Shown here: positions 48,581-57,359 of the stretch, piece by piece
Layout of the letters: each line of letters opens with the position of its first letter
Numbering within the stretch: position 1 is the first letter of the stretch
Assembly: GCF_024298765.1 (NCBI RefSeq)
Contig: NZ_CP101210.1
Source of the DNA: Escherichia coli
Lineage (GTDB): Bacteria; Pseudomonadota; Gammaproteobacteria; Enterobacterales; Enterobacteriaceae
DNA: 64,000 nucleotides
Reading direction: 5' to 3' (one strand)
Program-made: the position numbers and the translations under genes
The notes under the pieces: generated by a model
What the model saw: the letters and a program-made list of their open reading frames with translations, nothing else
Databases searched by the model: none
Told to the model about the DNA's origin: nothing

Positions 48581-49957
48581 TTACTGACTTTGTTCCACCT
48601 TCGTATCCAGTAAAATGACATAGCGATTCAACAACTGATTTAACCGGGTATCAATTTGCGTCAACAGCGTTGGCGAAACCTCTCCGGTCTGTTTTTGCTC
48701 TTCCAGTTGCCGAAGCAGTTCTTCCAGCGGCGGCTCCTTTAACGACTGCCGGATGCCGTACACCGCCGTTTTCAGTTCCGAACCGGTCAGATATCTCCCC
48801 TTACGTTCATCCAGTGCATCCAGCTGCGCCGACAGGCGCTGTAGCTGACTCTGCGCCTGAGCATAGCCATTCAGTGCCTCAGCAGACAGGGCGCTCAGCT
48901 CCCGCTGTTTGCGCCACTGCGCGTTCAGCGCCCTGACCTGAGGATTATCCGGCCACAGGGCATCAAGCTGGCGTAGCTGGCGATATCCCTGCTCCAGTGG
49001 CCAGCGGGCAGGCAATTTGTTTAACTGCTCCAGTTGCATCTGACTTGCCGCAATTGTTCTGTCCTGAGCCAGCAGCGCCTTATCCTTTACATCCAGCTTT
49101 GCCAGTTCGCCGCTCTCCAGCGACTGCGGCAACGGCATGACAGACAGTTGTATTCGCTGGATTAGCGCGTCCGGCTGATTAAGCTGCGACCAGCCCCATA
49201 ATCCTGTTCCGCCGAGACCGGCCATCACAACCATTCCGGCCATAAATATCGGCCATGTCCACTGCCGGGAGATTTCAGGGGATGGCACGGGTGGACTGGC
49301 ATCCTTATCGTTTTGCTGAACGGATCTGGTTGCAAAAACCGGCTGTGGACTTTCCTCTGACTTTTTCGGTTGATTCATTTCCCGGCGGGGTAATTCAGGG
49401 GGAGTGATAATGGTTTCCGCTCCCTGAGGCGCCAGCCGTTCCAGACGCAGAGCCGCATTGCGAAACTGCCCGGACAATACGTCCAGCTTCGTCATATGCC
49501 ACAGTTCACACTGTTGCAGCGTGGTTTCGATGGCGGAAAGATGCTGTACACAACGGTAGATCTGCGGCAGATCCTGATACTGAATATCCAGCGTTCTCAG
49601 TGCCTGCTGCATTTTTTCTGTGACCCAGTTGAGCAGTGATATTCTGGAATGTACCTGTACCGGCCAGAAGTCAGCCCAGCGCTGGAGCAGTATATCCAGT
49701 GAACCGAGTCCGTCTGCCATCCCTGCCAGCCCCTGCCGTCTGGTTATCGCCAGTACGTAACAGACCAGCGTCTGTAGTTCCACGCCATTTTGCCGGAACA
49801 GCGCGAGGCTGAGTTTTTCCACCTGACGCCAGTCCACATCCGGTCGGGCCGGGTGAGTCAGTTTACTCATTTCAGCCTGCAGTTCACCGGATTCCTTATA
49901 AGTACAAGGATCGCCGCCCATGACGAACTGGCTGATAAAATTCGCGTTACTTGCCAT
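48581..49957 (-). CDS. T6SS-associated ImpA_N-domain protein with central transmembrane segment (VasL/TagA-like)
   Basis: 458-aa ORF; N-terminal region similar in pattern to the ImpA_N domain of the tssA product; hydrophobic segment (WPIFMAGMVVMAGLGGTGLWGW); last gene of the T6SS block. Confidence 0.55.
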   Translation of the reverse strand: MASNANFISQFVMGGDPCTYKESGELQAEMSKLTHPARPDVDWRQVEKLSLALFRQNGVELQTLVCYVLAITRRQGLAGMADGLGSLDILLQRWADFWPVQVHSRISLLNWVTEKMQQALRTLDIQYQDLPQIYRCVQHLSAIETTLQQCELWHMTKLDVLSGQFRNAALRLERLAPQGAETIITPPELPRREMNQPKKSEESPQPVFATRSVQQNDKDASPPVPSPEISRQWTWPIFMAGMVVMAGLGGTGLWGWSQLNQPDALIQRIQLSVMPLPQSLESGELAKLDVKDKALLAQDRTIAASQMQLEQLNKLPARWPLEQGYRQLRQLDALWPDNPQVRALNAQWRKQRELSALSAEALNGYAQAQSQLQRLSAQLDALDERKGRYLTGSELKTAVYGIRQSLKEPPLEELLRQLEEQKQTGEVSPTLLTQIDTRLNQLLNRYVILLDTKVEQSQ

Positions 49958-50925: not shown

Positions 50926-51994
50926 GAGTCATACTCTCCCTGTTACGAATGGAAAAAGCGGGTATTAATCCCTGATAACGCCCCAGACTGACCGTCACTG
51001 TTCCGGTCGCGGGCGCGGCAAAGGAGGCGCGAAGGATGCCGGTACGGCTAATCTGTACACGCTGTTTTCCCAGCCGGGCAGCAGGCAACAGGCTGACGGG
51101 CAGCGTCAGTTGCAGACGGGCCTGACAGCGCCAGCCCAGATAAACGCGCAGCAGCACCAGCAAATCGCTGTGCAGTTGCCCGCCGGGCAGCCAGCCACGC
51201 GCTTCTGCGGCATCTTCGGTATACAGTTTCAGCAGCAACTGGCTGTTGACGTCGGTACCGGTACGCCCCAGCAGCGTTCGCGTTTTCAGGCTGATGCGTG
51301 AATTTTTTGACAGACCCGCAGGGGCCGGGAGAATTACAGGCTGCGGATCATGAGGCACCACCGTCGCTTTCGTCAGCGGGGCAAGCAGTCCCACCAGTGC
51401 CGTAACGCCTTCCGCCGTGCGCGTCGGCAGGCGCATCACGCTGAGCAGGGCCAGAAAACGGGATACCGGCGTGGCGATATGGTTCTCGCTGCCGGGAATA
51501 CCCAGCCCGATGAGTCCCAGCAGACAACGGGAAATGTCATCCACGGCACCTGCTTCAAACGACGCCGGGTAGTTATATTTGCGCCAGATGCGGTAATACT
51601 GGGTGATAAAGCGGTGGTTAAAAATATCGAGAAACGCCATCACTGCGTCATGTCCGTCATGACGCTGGGTAATGTAGTCCAGATAGGCGGTTGGCAGCGG
51701 CGAATCCACGCCGTACAGGCCGAGAAAGGTGGTGCGCACCGTGGGCGGCGCGTCGGGATTGCCCACGTCACGTTCAACGTTCTTTAACTCGCTGACCGGA
51801 AAGCCCATTCCGGGATGGGGACGAAAGCGCACCGCATCGGCGGCGGGGCTGTCGGTACTGCCCAGCGGCGCGTTCTGCTGGCTCTGTTCCAGCAACTGGC
51901 AAAAACGGTAAAAATTGATCCGCGCAATATCCGGGGCCAGCCGGTCGGTCAGCCCGGTACGCGCTGGCTGTGATGCTCTGTCCATTGCAGGCAC
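50906..51994 (-). CDS. tssG: T6SS baseplate subunit TssG
   Basis: 362-aa ORF immediately downstream of and overlapping tssF; TssG-like N-terminal region (INFYRFCQLLEQ). Confidence 0.7.
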   Translation of the reverse strand: MPAMDRASQPARTGLTDRLAPDIARINFYRFCQLLEQSQQNAPLGSTDSPAADAVRFRPHPGMGFPVSELKNVERDVGNPDAPPTVRTTFLGLYGVDSPLPTAYLDYITQRHDGHDAVMAFLDIFNHRFITQYYRIWRKYNYPASFEAGAVDDISRCLLGLIGLGIPGSENHIATPVSRFLALLSVMRLPTRTAEGVTALVGLLAPLTKATVVPHDPQPVILPAPAGLSKNSRISLKTRTLLGRTGTDVNSQLLLKLYTEDAAEARGWLPGGQLHSDLLVLLRVYLGWRCQARLQLTLPVSLLPAARLGKQRVQISRTGILRASFAAPATGTVTVSLGRYQGLIPAFSIRNRESMTHVSYSF

Positions 51995-53709
51995 TTTCCT
52001 GTGGGTTGCAGAATTAAGGTCAGTTGAGTGAATAAGTGGATATCGGCATACAGTGCGAAAAAGCGGTGCAGCAGTTCACCAAACAGCGTGATATCACCTT
52101 CTCCGGCAAAGCCGTTACTGTCCAGCGTCACCTGAATATCCACGCCACGCAGCAGAAAGCCTCTTTCAAAACGCTGTATCAGGCTGTGCTGAACGTCGAC
52201 AATCGCCTCCAGACGACGGCGGTTCATCTCACTTTCGGTCCAGTCGTACAGTGCCAGCGTGCCGCGCAGAATTTCGGCGTTATCCATCATCGATAAAAAG
52301 TTAGAACCAAGGTGACTGAGCACCCGCCAGTGGAAGCGGTCACGCGCAGGGGGATAGCAGGGCTGCGTCGGAGCGCACAGGTTGCGCACCCGCAGGACGT
52401 TCTGTGAGGCATGAACTGGCGTATCGAGCAGCGTGCTCTGTAAAGCCTTACGGGGAAGCTGCCCGTTAGTACCGGTCAGGCTTAAAGAGAGCGTTTCATC
52501 CTCCAGCATCCGGTCAGTATCAAACGCATCGCCGCCCAGAATCAGCCAGGTGTCATGCAGGCCGGAAGGGCCGCGCTTTACCCGCGTGTGGTAATAGCGT
52601 TCCGGCGCATCGTGGCGCAGCATCCCGCCCCGGTGACGAAAGCTGGAGAAGGGGACATACGCCTGACTGCCGGTATGGCGCGAAGAAATAATGTTGTCGA
52701 CGGAATAAATCTCGGTATGCCCGTCCTGAATGCGCATCGGGCGCAGCAGAAATTCGTTTTCCAGTGGCGAAAGGTGTAACGGATCGGCTTCGAGCGGGAA
52801 CAGGTTGATGACCGGCACGCAGTGCAGACGGATATTATCGCTGTCAAACGGCAGGTCGTGAGGCCAGTTCTCGTTCAGCACCACGTCAATCTCAAAGCCG
52901 GTTATCCCCTCCGGCCATGCAACCTGCTCCAGCCCGTTCAGCGCCACGAACATAAACTTCTCGCGGAAGGTGAAATACTCCAGCAGCAACTGGTAACCGC
53001 TGAAGGCTGACTCACCTTTTGGCCAGAGCCTGTCATCATCCTCAAAGCCCATCGGGGAAAAGTGTGCGCCAAGCATCCGGCGATCCTGCCCCGGCAGACG
53101 CAGCCAGAACTGCTGCGTGCCAAGCGTTAAAGCCCGGTGCAACGCACAGGCTACCGGGCTGTCGGCATTGAGATAGAGCAGCAGGCGGGATAAATCGATC
53201 TGCGACCAGTCACCAACCAGCGGGCCGCACGCAAAGCGCAGACGGATAACCGAGCGTCCGTCCGGTTCATATTGCAATGACACGTCCGGCAACGCCAGCG
53301 GATGCAGCGTGATATCACGCGTGGCACTGTAGACGCAGCGGGTTCTGCGCTCGCCAACAGGGCGCGACAATACCTGAAAATCGCTCAGCGTTTCGCTCTG
53401 CTTCATCTGCCGGTGATCTGTCGACAGTTCAACCACGGAAAGTGACGGGATGGTTCGCAGGTAGTGGGGCCACAGCAGGCTGACCAGCCCTTCAGTCAGT
53501 TCCGGCAGATCGTCGTCCAGCTTTTCGCGCAGGCGGCCCATTAAAAAAGCGAAGCCTTCGAACAGGCGCTCCACATAGGGATCGCGTGCGCCGGGTTTAT
53601 CAAGATTGAGCATCGCGGCGCGGTCGGGGTAAGCCTGCGCAAATTCTTTCCCCGCTTCACGCAGGTAGCGCATTTCGGCTTCGTAGTAGCGTTGGGTTAG
53701 ATCGTCCAT
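51949..53709 (-). CDS. tssF: T6SS baseplate subunit TssF (start placed at internal MDDLTQ Met; track start is 53748)
   Basis: About 586 aa; N-terminus MDDLTQRYYEAEMRYLREAGKEFAQAYPDRAAML is TssF-like; GGAAG upstream of this ATG. Confidence 0.75.
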   Translation of the reverse strand: MDDLTQRYYEAEMRYLREAGKEFAQAYPDRAAMLNLDKPGARDPYVERLFEGFAFLMGRLREKLDDDLPELTEGLVSLLWPHYLRTIPSLSVVELSTDHRQMKQSETLSDFQVLSRPVGERRTRCVYSATRDITLHPLALPDVSLQYEPDGRSVIRLRFACGPLVGDWSQIDLSRLLLYLNADSPVACALHRALTLGTQQFWLRLPGQDRRMLGAHFSPMGFEDDDRLWPKGESAFSGYQLLLEYFTFREKFMFVALNGLEQVAWPEGITGFEIDVVLNENWPHDLPFDSDNIRLHCVPVINLFPLEADPLHLSPLENEFLLRPMRIQDGHTEIYSVDNIISSRHTGSQAYVPFSSFRHRGGMLRHDAPERYYHTRVKRGPSGLHDTWLILGGDAFDTDRMLEDETLSLSLTGTNGQLPRKALQSTLLDTPVHASQNVLRVRNLCAPTQPCYPPARDRFHWRVLSHLGSNFLSMMDNAEILRGTLALYDWTESEMNRRRLEAIVDVQHSLIQRFERGFLLRGVDIQVTLDSNGFAGEGDITLFGELLHRFFALYADIHLFTQLTLILQPTGKCLQWTEHHSQRVPG

Positions 53710-53918
53710 CGGAGGGATTATCTTCCTTTCATTGAAAGTGAATATCATGCAGGTGTAGAAGTAACATCATAGTTAAATTTATTCTATGTGAATATATTAT
53801 GGATAGTTGCTGACTTATTGATTTTAATAATGATGTATTCTTGTCTTTTCTGAACCAAATTAAATTTACCTTACATAATAGGCAATAATTAATAATTGTG
53901 AACGAATAACTTAAAACA

Positions 53919-54344
53919 TCACGGGCAAATTTCCTGACTGTCGATTATATATCTTATAACTCCGTATTTTCTGTCGTCTTTTGTTGAAATATCTCGTGAT
54001 AATCTAATTAAGTCATTCTTCCCAAATTTTTTTTCGCGCCCTGACAATGAAATGGTGAATGGATAATCCAATTCACCGCGGCTATCTTTATATATCATGA
54101 ATGCCCCCTCATATTTAAAACCATAATCAATATCTGCCGTGGGAAAATATACTAATACATCACTATCACCAACTGGCAAGTGTATATTATGCTGATAAAT
54201 CAGCGTAGAACCGGAAACATATCCCTGAATAAAGACATCGATATCTGAGGAGCATCTATTCTCAATCCTGACTATATTGGAATACTCTTTTTGTGAAGTA
54301 CACCCACTCAAAAAAAACAATAAAAAAACAATTATTCTAATCAT
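53919..54344 (-). CDS. Small lipoprotein, candidate cognate immunity protein for the upstream PAAR toxin
   Basis: 141-aa ORF with lipobox (FFLSGCTS); overlaps the toxin stop by 8 nt; AT-rich. Confidence 0.6.
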   Translation of the reverse strand: MIRIIVFLLFFLSGCTSQKEYSNIVRIENRCSSDIDVFIQGYVSGSTLIYQHNIHLPVGDSDVLVYFPTADIDYGFKYEGAFMIYKDSRGELDYPFTISLSGREKKFGKNDLIRLSRDISTKDDRKYGVIRYIIDSQEICP

Positions 54345-55749
54345 TAAAACTCACCCTGCTCAACCAGATCAATGCCTGAACATCTTCATCTGCCGCGACC
54401 AATCTCTTATATCTATCAGGTGCATAGCTATCTGCATATTTCATTATATCAATCTCTCCTGAAGATGGCATTGGAGTATTAGGGATGGTACTTTGACCCC
54501 GCGTGGATGTCCCCTTATGTGTCCATGATTCAGAACCATATTTATCCATAACTTTATGTCCCATCTCATGAGCACTATCCCATTTATATCTTTCATTACT
54601 ATATAGAAGAGCCTTTATTTCATCCTTGCTGTTATTATAATAGCCACCATAGTTATGGTATATTTTTTCAAACCCCAAAAGACTTACCGACGACTGCATA
54701 TCTGGATCTAACGATGATATCAAATCAAAAGTTCGCATAGATGGAGTAATATTTATCTCAGCCTTTACATTTACTTTAAAAACCCCAATCGCTGTAACGA
54801 TATTACCACCAATTCCCCCGCCGCGACTTCCATTTCGTGACCAGTAAAACTCCACGCCATTTTTAGTAAGACTAACTAAATCGCTATAAGGTATTGGCGA
54901 TAACTCAGGGTTACTGCCTTTTGTACCGCTATCCTTAACAGATAATCTCCATGTTATATCGACCACTTTATTATTTCTGTCAACTTTTACATCAACCCAC
55001 TCTTCTTCTTTCGCAGCATTTTTCAATGGATAATCAACTTTTATCATCATATCACCACATAAAGCAATCAGTCTTACGAGTAGTGATTTGCTTTTTATCT
55101 TAGTTGTATCCAGTATGCCTTGATTACTGTAACCATCCCATTGCCAGGCATGCTCTCCCTTATCACAATATTTACCGGTCTGCCGTTCACTATAAATCAC
55201 TTCATTACCATCAAGCACTTCCAGAGAAAGCGCTTCAGCCTCATCGCCTTTATTTGTGATAGTAAAATCTATTTTTTCTGTATTCTTCGTACTACCACCG
55301 CTTATCATTTCTTTATAATCAGGTATATTCAGTGGCGTCAGTATCTTATTACCTGATAATTTAATTCTGTAATCCAGTTTTACATCATCAGAGGATGAAT
55401 CAGAACCAGAAGTCAGATCCTTTTTCGCCGACTGCGCATGTTGTTCCGCTTCACTTCCCCCGTCATCCACCTCATAGGTATCATCCATCATCGACGCAAT
55501 AAACCGCGCCTTACACGGGCAACTGCTCTGGCTATCCAGCGTCCCCGCCATCAGCCTGCCGTGAATATCTGTTTCAGGAACGCCGCCCACAATAATAAAC
55601 ATTCCCGGATATCTGCCGCAGGTGACCCGGTCCATATCCCGTGCCTGCGGGATACCCATGATCGTATGGTCGTCCGCGCCTTCAATAATTTTGCCGCCGC
55701 AGGTAGTCTTATCGCCCCTGACCAGGAAGTAGCCTGTTCCCATTGCCAT
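54337..55749 (-). CDS. PAAR-like domain T6SS effector with C-terminal HExxH (zincin-type metallopeptidase-like) domain
   Basis: 470-aa ORF; N-terminal PAAR-like region (GTGYFLVRGDKTTCGGKII ... CPCKARFIAS); C-terminal AHEMGHKVMD motif; start ATG overlaps the tssA stop (TGATG). Confidence 0.65.
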   Translation of the reverse strand: MAMGTGYFLVRGDKTTCGGKIIEGADDHTIMGIPQARDMDRVTCGRYPGMFIIVGGVPETDIHGRLMAGTLDSQSSCPCKARFIASMMDDTYEVDDGGSEAEQHAQSAKKDLTSGSDSSSDDVKLDYRIKLSGNKILTPLNIPDYKEMISGGSTKNTEKIDFTITNKGDEAEALSLEVLDGNEVIYSERQTGKYCDKGEHAWQWDGYSNQGILDTTKIKSKSLLVRLIALCGDMMIKVDYPLKNAAKEEEWVDVKVDRNNKVVDITWRLSVKDSGTKGSNPELSPIPYSDLVSLTKNGVEFYWSRNGSRGGGIGGNIVTAIGVFKVNVKAEINITPSMRTFDLISSLDPDMQSSVSLLGFEKIYHNYGGYYNNSKDEIKALLYSNERYKWDSAHEMGHKVMDKYGSESWTHKGTSTRGQSTIPNTPMPSSGEIDIMKYADSYAPDRYKRLVAADEDVQALIWLSRVSFND

Positions 55750-57359
55750 CAGTCCTTATGTTGCGTATCACACAATACCGCTGCCCGCACCGGATTGATT
55801 GCCACCAGTGTACCCAGCAGGGCATCCATTTTTCGGTTCAGCAGGGCTTTATCCGCATAGCGGTGCGCCCGCAGACGCAGCAGTTTCAGCTGTCGGGCTT
55901 TTACTTCAAACAGCAGTTCTGGCTCCCACTGCGTCAGCGTTATTCCCTGTGCGGCTGTATCCAGTTCTTCCAGCAGCAGGAGCGCCATCTCGTTTTTACC
56001 GTACTGTTCCGCCACCCGCGCCATCAGCAGTCGCAATAGCAGGCGCTGTCGTGCCGTGGTGATGCCCGGACGGGTCTGTATCCAGCCCAGCGCCGCTTCC
56101 ACGCCCTGACTGTCTGCTATCTCCAGCGCTTCCGGCTCCAGCGCCAGTACGTCGTTTGTGGCGTCGTCTGTCGGTACAGCGGCTTTCCCCGCAAGCCATG
56201 CGCCGTCTTCCCGCATCATGACCTGCTGCGCTATCCAGTTGCGCGTCACCTCGTCGGCGAACGGCGTGCCGTCGTTCCATGCCAGATTTTCCAGCCCCGG
56301 CAGGCGCTCCAGCAGCAGCGCCAGGTCCTGACGGATAACCGCTGTCCATCTGTCCCACGGTGCGCCCGCCTTGGCCAGCGCCTGATGCAGATACCACTGG
56401 ATATCCAGCCAGAAATGGCTGACGCCGGAGCTGAACATCAGGTCGGCCTGCTCCAGCAGTTCCGTCCAGTTCTGCTGAGCATACAGCCGCTTAAGCTGGT
56501 TGCGTGATTCTGTGCGCGGCGGGGCCAGCCGGGTTTTTCCGTCCACATCCGGCGGCAGTTCATGCACCGTGTCCCAGCGCAGGGTTTTCATCAGCCGGTG
56601 TGCTGAAAGCCAGCCCTGCGGCTGTTCGTTCAGATAACGGGCCAGCACTTTCGCCTGGTCGAGCAGGTCGCGCCCGGAAGTGATGGTCTGTACCTGTGGC
56701 GCATCCACCGGGGAAGACGGTGCCGGAACGCCGCTGCTGTTCTGCGGCACCACCGCGTTCATCCCACCCGACTGCGCCAGACGTGATTCCAGCGCGTTAA
56801 TCAGCGGCATCAGGGAGGGGGAATGCTGGTCTTCGGGCCATGCAGTGAAGGAAACCGTCAGTTGATTAAGAGCGGCAACAATGTTCGCAAAATCCTCTTT
56901 TGCCACTTCCGGGTAGCGGGCAAGGCTGTCGAGCATCTTTTCCCCTGCCAGCCACTCCAGCGCCATTTTTCGGCTTGCCGGGCGCGAGGGCAGCAGTTGC
57001 GCACCGAAGCGTTCCACCAGTCCGGCTAACAGCGCCAGCCCCTCAGCCAGTCCGCGTTCGCCATCGCGGTGCAGTCGCGCCCAGATATAGTAAGTGGCGA
57101 TGCGCACGTCTTTTGCCTGCGTCAGCAGCAGGGATTCGGCAAGCTGGCAGATAAGGTCCGTATCCGCGCCGGAAAGTTTGTTCATCTCGTCGCGGATACG
57201 CAGGAAATCGTCGTGGTAGCCGGGGTCTTCCCCGACCGGCGTATCTGCCGTCACCGGCAGCAGCCATGTCTGCCACAGCGCCGCCTGTGTTCGCGCCGAG
57301 TCCAGTGCGTCCCGGTCGGCAAAACAGCTACGGGTCAGCTTTTGCAACAGTTCACTCAT
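55749..57359 (-). CDS. tssA: T6SS protein TssA (ImpA family); start placed at MSELLQKL just after the tssM stop
   Basis: About 536-aa ORF with ImpA_N-type N-terminal region (PVGEDPGYHDDFLRIRDEMNKL); follows tssM. Confidence 0.7.
   Translation of the reverse strand: MSELLQKLTRSCFADRDALDSARTQAALWQTWLLPVTADTPVGEDPGYHDDFLRIRDEMNKLSGADTDLICQLAESLLLTQAKDVRIATYYIWARLHRDGERGLAEGLALLAGLVERFGAQLLPSRPASRKMALEWLAGEKMLDSLARYPEVAKEDFANIVAALNQLTVSFTAWPEDQHSPSLMPLINALESRLAQSGGMNAVVPQNSSGVPAPSSPVDAPQVQTITSGRDLLDQAKVLARYLNEQPQGWLSAHRLMKTLRWDTVHELPPDVDGKTRLAPPRTESRNQLKRLYAQQNWTELLEQADLMFSSGVSHFWLDIQWYLHQALAKAGAPWDRWTAVIRQDLALLLERLPGLENLAWNDGTPFADEVTRNWIAQQVMMREDGAWLAGKAAVPTDDATNDVLALEPEALEIADSQGVEAALGWIQTRPGITTARQRLLLRLLMARVAEQYGKNEMALLLLEELDTAAQGITLTQWEPELLFEVKARQLKLLRLRAHRYADKALLNRKMDALLGTLVAINPVRAAVLCDTQHKD

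Follow-up and report, generated by a model that had tools for sequence, protein, structure and literature searches.

Low-GC spacer ahead of tssF in the metV-island T6SS of Escherichia coli: probable non-coding end of an exchanged effector-immunity cassette

Variable effector-immunity regions have been described in enterobacterial T6SS clusters, for example VR1-3 of Salmonella SPI-6 and the vgrG-tle-tli-PAAR region of E. coli T6SS-1 (PMC6730261, PMC11669294). In these regions, as at the locus described here, a low-GC module of toxin and immunity genes lies between core genes. The modules are likewise exchanged between strains, their breakpoints fall at conserved flanks, and extra or orphan immunity genes accompany them (PMC6730261, PMC11669294). 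The described regions sit downstream of vgrG, whereas the slot studied here is located between tssA and tssF. A description of the non-coding tail of such a module was not found in the T6SS literature examined. The kind of region is already well known, and this slot with its tail is an undescribed instance of it.

Two other systems were compared. The promoter P4532 of the EAEC sci1 cluster likewise lies inside the same cluster type, beside effector-immunity genes, and could feed the downstream core genes. P4532 (Brunet, Bernard and Cascales 2020, J Bacteriol 202:e00075-20, as cited in PMC13262931) is reported to drive basal tli1 expression, and its position beside vgrG/tle1-tli1 is deduced from that statement and from the gene order. 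P4532 is described as having an overlapping Fur box, GATC and -10 element (PMC13262931), in contrast to the present spacer, which has no GATC and no Fur box above chance. Because GATC is absent, the spacer lacks the Fur-Dam architecture reported for the two known sci1 promoters (PMC13262931). The other system is the set of operons in pathogenic E. coli that are silenced by H-NS-StpA and counter-silenced by RfaH (PMC9765446). The T6SS of strain CFT073 belongs here: it is bound by H-NS-StpA and loaded with RfaH at the ops element of the tssH leader, and the window-type strain has the same ops. However, CFT073 has neither the cassette nor the spacer of the window type. In operons of this kind, AT-rich foreign inserts are expected obstacles.

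The window is the whole 64-kb stretch of E. coli DNA that was analysed. The 2.8 kb around the gap are 100% identical to E. coli strain E5 and 99.9% identical to APEC O2-211. The cluster is the metV-island T6SS. Its layout recurs in CFT073, where it adjoins three tRNA-Met genes and where amiC and argA follow as they do in the window. According to the map of open reading frames, all genes of the T6SS string around the gap are on the minus strand. Downstream of the spacer the string continues with tssF, tssG, tssJ, tssE and a VasL-domain gene, and ends at 48581. The coordinates are collected in Table 1.

Table 1. Features of the tssA-tssF region in the window (identity: nucleotide identity between the window and the Salmonella type)
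Feature	Position	Strand	Size and composition	Identity	Basis or remark
tssM	57352-60873	-			
tssA	55749-57386	-		0.80	Forms the upstream edge of the variable slot; cargo-less clusters are homologous only as far as its stop codon
PAAR-domain toxin gene	54337-55749	-	470 aa; core-like GC in the N-terminal PAAR part, low GC in the C-terminal part	0.78	
Lipoprotein gene (immA)	53919-54344	-	141 aa; GC 0.343	0.75	Lipobox LSGC; presumed immunity protein
Whole low-GC tract (toxin C-terminal domain, immunity gene and spacer), exchangeable cassette	53710-55400	-	1691 bp; GC 0.354		Homology breakpoints against other cargo types
Full non-coding spacer, immunity-gene stop to tssF start	53710-53918	-	209 bp; GC 0.268	0.77-0.79	Open reading frame map, tssF start, composition
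Cassette-lineage-specific AT-rich tail	53748-53922	-	175 bp		Homology to the L002 type stops at 53923 and restarts at 53747
Imperfect AT-only palindrome CAATAATTAATAATTG	53883-53898	.			Disrupted by an indel in Salmonella; matches no assigned regulator motif
Best sigma-70-like match, TTCACA-16-TATTAT, towards tssF	53875-53902 (53902 to 53875)	-			Chance level; position not conserved
tssF leader / translation-initiation region	53710-53747	-	about 38 nt		Common to the window, Salmonella, L002 and NC101 cargo types
tssF	51949-53709	-	586 aa from ATG 53709	0.85	First gene downstream of the spacer

A sequence-only reading of the window had placed an AT-rich gap of 170 bp at 53749-53918, inside an otherwise tightly coupled operon. 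The gap exists, but its left edge and its length had to be revised. The start of tssF at 53709 is the RefSeq/PGAP placement in the 99.9%-identical APEC O2-211 record, and position 1 of the Pfam TssF profile aligns with residue 1 of the protein starting there. The gap therefore covers 53710-53918. The former left edge arose from an upstream in-frame ATG at 53748, which is also the tssF start in the mechanical list of open reading frames. This ATG was rejected as the start codon since no Shine-Dalgarno sequence precedes it, both PGAP and Pfam favour 53709, and the frame and the ATG itself are lost in clusters of the L002 type described below. The AT-richness was borne out, with a GC content of 0.247 at 53749-53918 and a similarly low value over the full gap (Table 1). 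Across the 64-kb window, just 0.2% of 170-bp segments reach so low a GC, and 53749-53918 is the AT-richest 170 bp in its half of the window. The tight coupling also holds from tssM to vasL, where all other junctions overlap or are separated by 3 nt at most, against 209 nt ahead of tssF.

The low GC is not confined to the gap. It persists through the immunity gene and on into the toxin gene, whose C-terminal two-thirds it covers, to about 55400, whereas the GC of the core genes is 0.565 for tssF-vasL and 0.609 for tssM-tssA. A second low-GC stretch, with a minimum of 0.235, is found at window 61950-63400 downstream of vgrG and includes an amidase-like effector region. This further cargo region of the T6SS cluster is probably the counterpart of the EAEC location of P4532.

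The spacer is composed of two parts, the AT-rich tail of about 170 nt that belongs to the cassette lineage and the tssF leader of about 38 nt. A Shine-Dalgarno-like AAGGAAG runs from 53728 to 53722, 12 nt ahead of the tssF ATG. The last 38 nt or so, which recur in several cargo types, are best seen as a tssF leader with its ribosome-binding site.

Orthologous clusters without cargo were the comparison that the earlier reading had proposed. In SCU-101, CFT073 and Nissle 1917, the tssA stop codon and the tssF ATG are joined by 33 bp, which are unrelated to the spacer sequence. The window is homologous to these clusters up to the tssA stop codon and again from one base before the tssF ATG. The earlier reading would have been contradicted by the same spacer in clusters without cargo; such clusters have no spacer at all. 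The short junction and the position of the two breaks thus indicate that the spacer is present or absent together with the cargo. A tssF of this type was found in 1285 of 5426 complete E. coli genomes, and 94 of those 1285 have the cargo-less tssA-tssF junction. The 209-bp spacer is present in 79 genomes, in one copy each and at least 99% identical. An exact 22-mer scan of species-representative genomes returned no matches; the E. coli and Salmonella representatives are probably without this cluster. A close relative of the cluster, with a TssF 92% identical, was seen in two further loci (L015 and L016, 541-5761). There tssM is followed by a 124-bp gap of 53% GC and then by tssF, with neither tssA nor cargo at that place, and no VasL gene follows tssE.

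The slot holds other cassettes as well. The 175-bp tail was found only in window-type E. coli (79 genomes) and in the orthologous Salmonella cassette, where it is about 72-76% identical. In the commonest allele, the L002 type, the toxin and immunity genes are about 83% identical to those of the window, and the tail is replaced by a different segment of 525 bp. This segment contains an open reading frame for a 133-aa lipoprotein that is not annotated, at a position equivalent to window 53748-53922. In NC101 as in the commonest E. coli alleles, the 472-559 bp that form a 'gap' ahead of tssF in RefSeq hold an intact, unannotated lipoprotein frame, MIRLIFSFLLCTLCAGC...ICP, on the minus strand of the loci L002 (3789-4190), L005 (4789-5190) and L003 (about 3789-4182). 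The frame probably encodes an immunity protein, as an orphan second copy where the cassette is of the L002 type; behind the PAAR toxin of NC101 it is the only candidate for one. Two further cargo types have in common a 369-bp AT-rich tail unrelated to the spacer, and a metagenomic lineage has an unrelated tail of 162 bp and 32% GC. Smith-Waterman and tblastx comparisons of the 175-bp tail with the sequences of the other cassettes detected no similarity. A non-coding AT-rich stretch of 78-369 bp precedes tssF in all cargo-bearing lineages examined. In the sci1 cluster of EAEC 042, a hypothetical gene of 230 aa is packed into the tssA-tssF slot with no spacer (L022 20238-20930), which indicates that the slot is variable in the sci1 lineage too.

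The two genes ahead of the spacer were also inspected. The C-terminal 370 residues of the toxin (about 100-470; window 54337-55449) have no sequence match in Pfam, NCBIfam or PDB and contain an HEMGH (HExxH) motif. The 141-aa lipoprotein belongs to no Pfam or NCBIfam family. The motif, together with the lipoprotein as immunity partner, suggests that the PAAR protein may be an uncharacterised metallopeptidase toxin acting in the periplasm. In APEC O2-211, one extra T in the T8 run at window 54026-54033 (plus strand; A8 in the immunity gene) shifts the frame of the immunity gene, so that it is annotated with 110 aa against 141 aa. Either a sequencing error or slipped-strand variation of the immunity gene could account for the frameshift. 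Another side observation is a sigma-70-like site with an extended -10 (ATGCCA-17-TATAAT, with TG ahead) on the minus strand at window 54443-54471, in the 3' end of the toxin gene. The immunity gene starts about 100 nt downstream of it, and the site is a candidate for an internal promoter of that gene. The Salmonella and L002 alleles have a weaker -10, and conservation is uninformative in this region because it is coding.

The immunity protein family is narrow, with 8 clusters from E. coli and Salmonella only. Its Salmonella enterica member is 69% identical and lies in an orthologous T6SS cluster with the gene order tssM, tssA, a 477-aa PAAR gene, a 142-aa immunity gene, a 206-bp gap and tssF. 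The spacer is old: the Salmonella gap aligns with that of the window over its entire length and was co-inherited with the toxin-immunity pair. A more distant homologue of the immunity gene (L013) is followed by DNA that is unrelated to the spacer and does not adjoin tssF. The identities of spacer and genes between the two lineages are given in Table 1, and the 65 nt closest to tssF, 53710-53774 including the leader, are 86% identical. The distal part, 53775-53918, is 0.72 identical, compared with 0.52 at four-fold degenerate sites of the two cassette genes and 0.61 at those of all seven genes. The difference is significant by Fisher's test (p 2e-4 for the cassette genes and 8e-3 for the seven genes) in a comparison of two lineages, the window type and the Salmonella type. 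Substitutions accumulate more slowly in non-coding DNA that is AT-rich and close to mutational equilibrium, and free placement of gaps flatters non-coding alignments, but after an equal-rates correction (our own arithmetic) neutral DNA of this composition would be expected at 0.55-0.64, which is below 0.72. Recent recombination was considered as a cause and rejected, since sliding-window identity revealed no tract. The spacer identity above that of four-fold sites indicates that some sequence constraint exists, and the alignment is consistent with modest purifying selection on the spacer.

The course of transcription across the slot can be judged from CFT073. A perfect ops element lies 60 nt upstream of tssH in that strain (Hustmyer et al., PMC9765446). 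In CFT073 hns stpA cells, RfaH ChIP peaks were reported at 3229483-3242734, 3243682-3245954 and 3246923-3249516 (PMC9765446 supplement). On the CFT073 map, these peaks cover tssH-tssM, then tssA/tssF including their junction at 3244130-3244164, and tssJ-vasL. In this cargo-less strain, in cells devoid of H-NS and StpA, the peaks represent one transcription unit from the tssH leader through the slot to vasL. H-NS-StpA was found bound within and upstream of the CFT073 T6SS locus (PMC9765446). The perfect ops, GGCGGTAGCGTG, was located in the hcp-tssH spacer of both APEC O2-211 (L014 15300-15311) and CFT073 (L008 14486-14497), outside the window. It is thus present in the tssH leader of cargo-bearing and cargo-less clusters alike and matches the published RfaH target of CFT073. 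By analogy, a dedicated tssF promoter would not be required, because the cargo-less clusters have no room for one.

The earlier reading had offered an internal promoter, an H-NS nucleation site or the scar of cargo insertion as explanations of the gap. An internal sigma-70 promoter borne by the cassette could drive tssF-tssG-tssJ-tssE-vasL independently and offset the polarity of the insertion. The site listed in Table 1 has 10 of 12 consensus matches and points towards tssF, the spacer is conserved above silent sites, a non-coding AT-rich stretch precedes tssF in every lineage with cargo, and in the related EAEC sci1 cluster an internal promoter, P4532, has been documented beside the effector-immunity genes (Brunet et al. 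2020, cited in PMC13262931). However, consensus and weight-matrix scans gave only this one site, at chance level: its score of 11.2 is within the range of composition-matched shuffles (mean 9.9, sd 1.7, 95th percentile 12.9), and the region 53000-55000 has fewer promoter-like sites than expected (3 against 5.2). In Salmonella the -35 and the spacing of its counterpart are altered, the -10 TATTAT has become TATTAA, and the best site is elsewhere. The cargo-less clusters, with 33 bp only, have no tssF promoter, and RfaH occupancy crosses the tssA-tssF junction in CFT073. Promoter prediction thus did not bear out the suggestion, and an independent promoter in the spacer is unlikely. Other elements of control were searched for in the spacer with the same outcome. 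The best Fur box match was 12/19, which is chance level, as were the matches to CRP, sigma-54 and Fis-like motifs. There is no GATC within 53710-53918; the nearest one, within codons 3-4 of tssF, lacks conservation in Salmonella. The spacer may instead act as a functional H-NS/StpA nucleation site, from which a filament over the cassette silences or attenuates the baseplate genes until it is overcome by RfaH-modified polymerase. The composition fits this proposal, with a GC of 0.247 (0.2 percentile) within a 1.7-kb tract at 35% GC, and a constraint that keeps the AT-richness would fit as well. Moreover, H-NS-StpA binds the orthologous T6SS locus of CFT073, which RfaH targets as well (PMC9765446), and the window-type strain APEC O2-211 has the ops element. 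On the other hand, a specific motif did not stand out from chance: the best match in the spacer to the reported H-NS high-affinity motif was 8/10, which 56% of shuffles equalled, and there are only three A/T runs of at least 4 bases. H-NS coverage of AT-rich foreign DNA is also generic and does not imply a dedicated site. Such a site is a tentative possibility, and it is compatible with, rather than exclusive of, the spacer being a cassette tail. The above-neutral conservation is the only hint in favour of either an internal promoter or a functional H-NS site.

The spacer could also be a decayed former gene, such as a second orphan immunity gene of the kind seen in other alleles, or it could encode an RNA. 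The equivalent space of the L002- and NC101-type clusters holds the intact 133-aa frame, and the window spacer itself has a stop-free frame of 62 codons, a length reached by 3.5% of shuffles. This frame is open in the window only; all frames are broken in the Salmonella type, where the 62-codon frame has several stops and the indels are not multiples of three, which also speaks against a small protein gene. Smith-Waterman comparison with the L002-type segment gave z-scores of 0.3 and 0.95, no target exceeded 2.1, and tblastx E values were above 0.4. Conservation above neutral is moreover unlike a pseudogene, and decay of a gene is a very improbable origin. A dispersed repeat or a remnant of a mobile element was looked for as well; the spacer is single-copy in each of the 79 genomes, had no plasmid or phage match, and contained only short AT-rich repeat matches and the one imperfect palindrome of Table 1. 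Regulation of tssF at the RNA level, by a small RNA or by a structured leader that acts for instance as attenuator or thermosensor, might be proposed from a predicted short hairpin, UCACUUUC-AAU-GAAAGGA, which can pair with the Shine-Dalgarno sequence in the 86%-conserved leader. However, the pair closing the loop is broken in 3 of 4 Salmonella loci, and the fold of the spacer is weaker than that of shuffles (z-score +1.0). An Rfam scan of 53300-54500 gave no match in the spacer and a sole chance-level match inside the immunity gene, and no intrinsic terminator was detected on the coding (minus) strand across 53000-55000. A structured RNA is accordingly hardly credible.

The spacer probably consists of the tssF leader and of the non-coding DNA at the 3' end of an effector-immunity cassette, a horizontally exchanged module of low GC that comprises the PAAR toxin and the lipoprotein and is inserted between tssA and tssF. 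Of the options first raised, the scar of cargo insertion came closest. The DNA is indeed borne by the cargo, but 'scar' is not the appropriate word, since the spacer is conserved above silent sites and carries the leader and ribosome-binding site of tssF. With the spacer as a cassette tail, polymerase starting upstream, including at the RfaH-dependent tssH leader, would read through it. RfaH-loaded polymerase would be expected to resist Rho and H-NS over the AT-rich untranslated 209 nt, and tssF would then be translated from its own Shine-Dalgarno sequence. We infer the read-through and the translation of tssF for this allele from the CFT073 data and the shared ops element. The AT-richness would be a legacy of foreign origin, with H-NS likely to cover the whole 1.7-kb cassette including the spacer, and not the mark of a dedicated control element. 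Against a passive tail stands the observation that the distal spacer is more conserved than four-fold sites, which places constraint on mostly 'passive' DNA. The non-coding AT-rich stretch before tssF in all cargo-bearing lineages examined could mean that something is needed there. The tail of about 170 nt might be a cis-regulatory module, conserved and carried along by the cassette, either a conditional internal promoter or an H-NS/Rho checkpoint passed only by RfaH-modified polymerase, although we regard this as improbable.

Between tssA and tssF, the metV-island T6SS of E. coli has a slot for cargo, which is occupied in about 93% of the clusters. The gap ahead of tssF belongs to the cargo and not to the core operon, which is mainly a matter of annotation hygiene and context; in the common alleles, what corresponds to the 'gap' conceals a probable immunity gene that is not annotated. 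A regulatory role of the spacer, if true, would be of moderate interest for T6SS specialists. If the tail were a cis-regulatory module, gain of the toxin cassette would rewire the timing of tssF-G-J-E relative to the upstream membrane-complex genes. If the extra conservation reflects regulation, exchange of the cassette would alter the expression of the baseplate genes besides the toxin repertoire.
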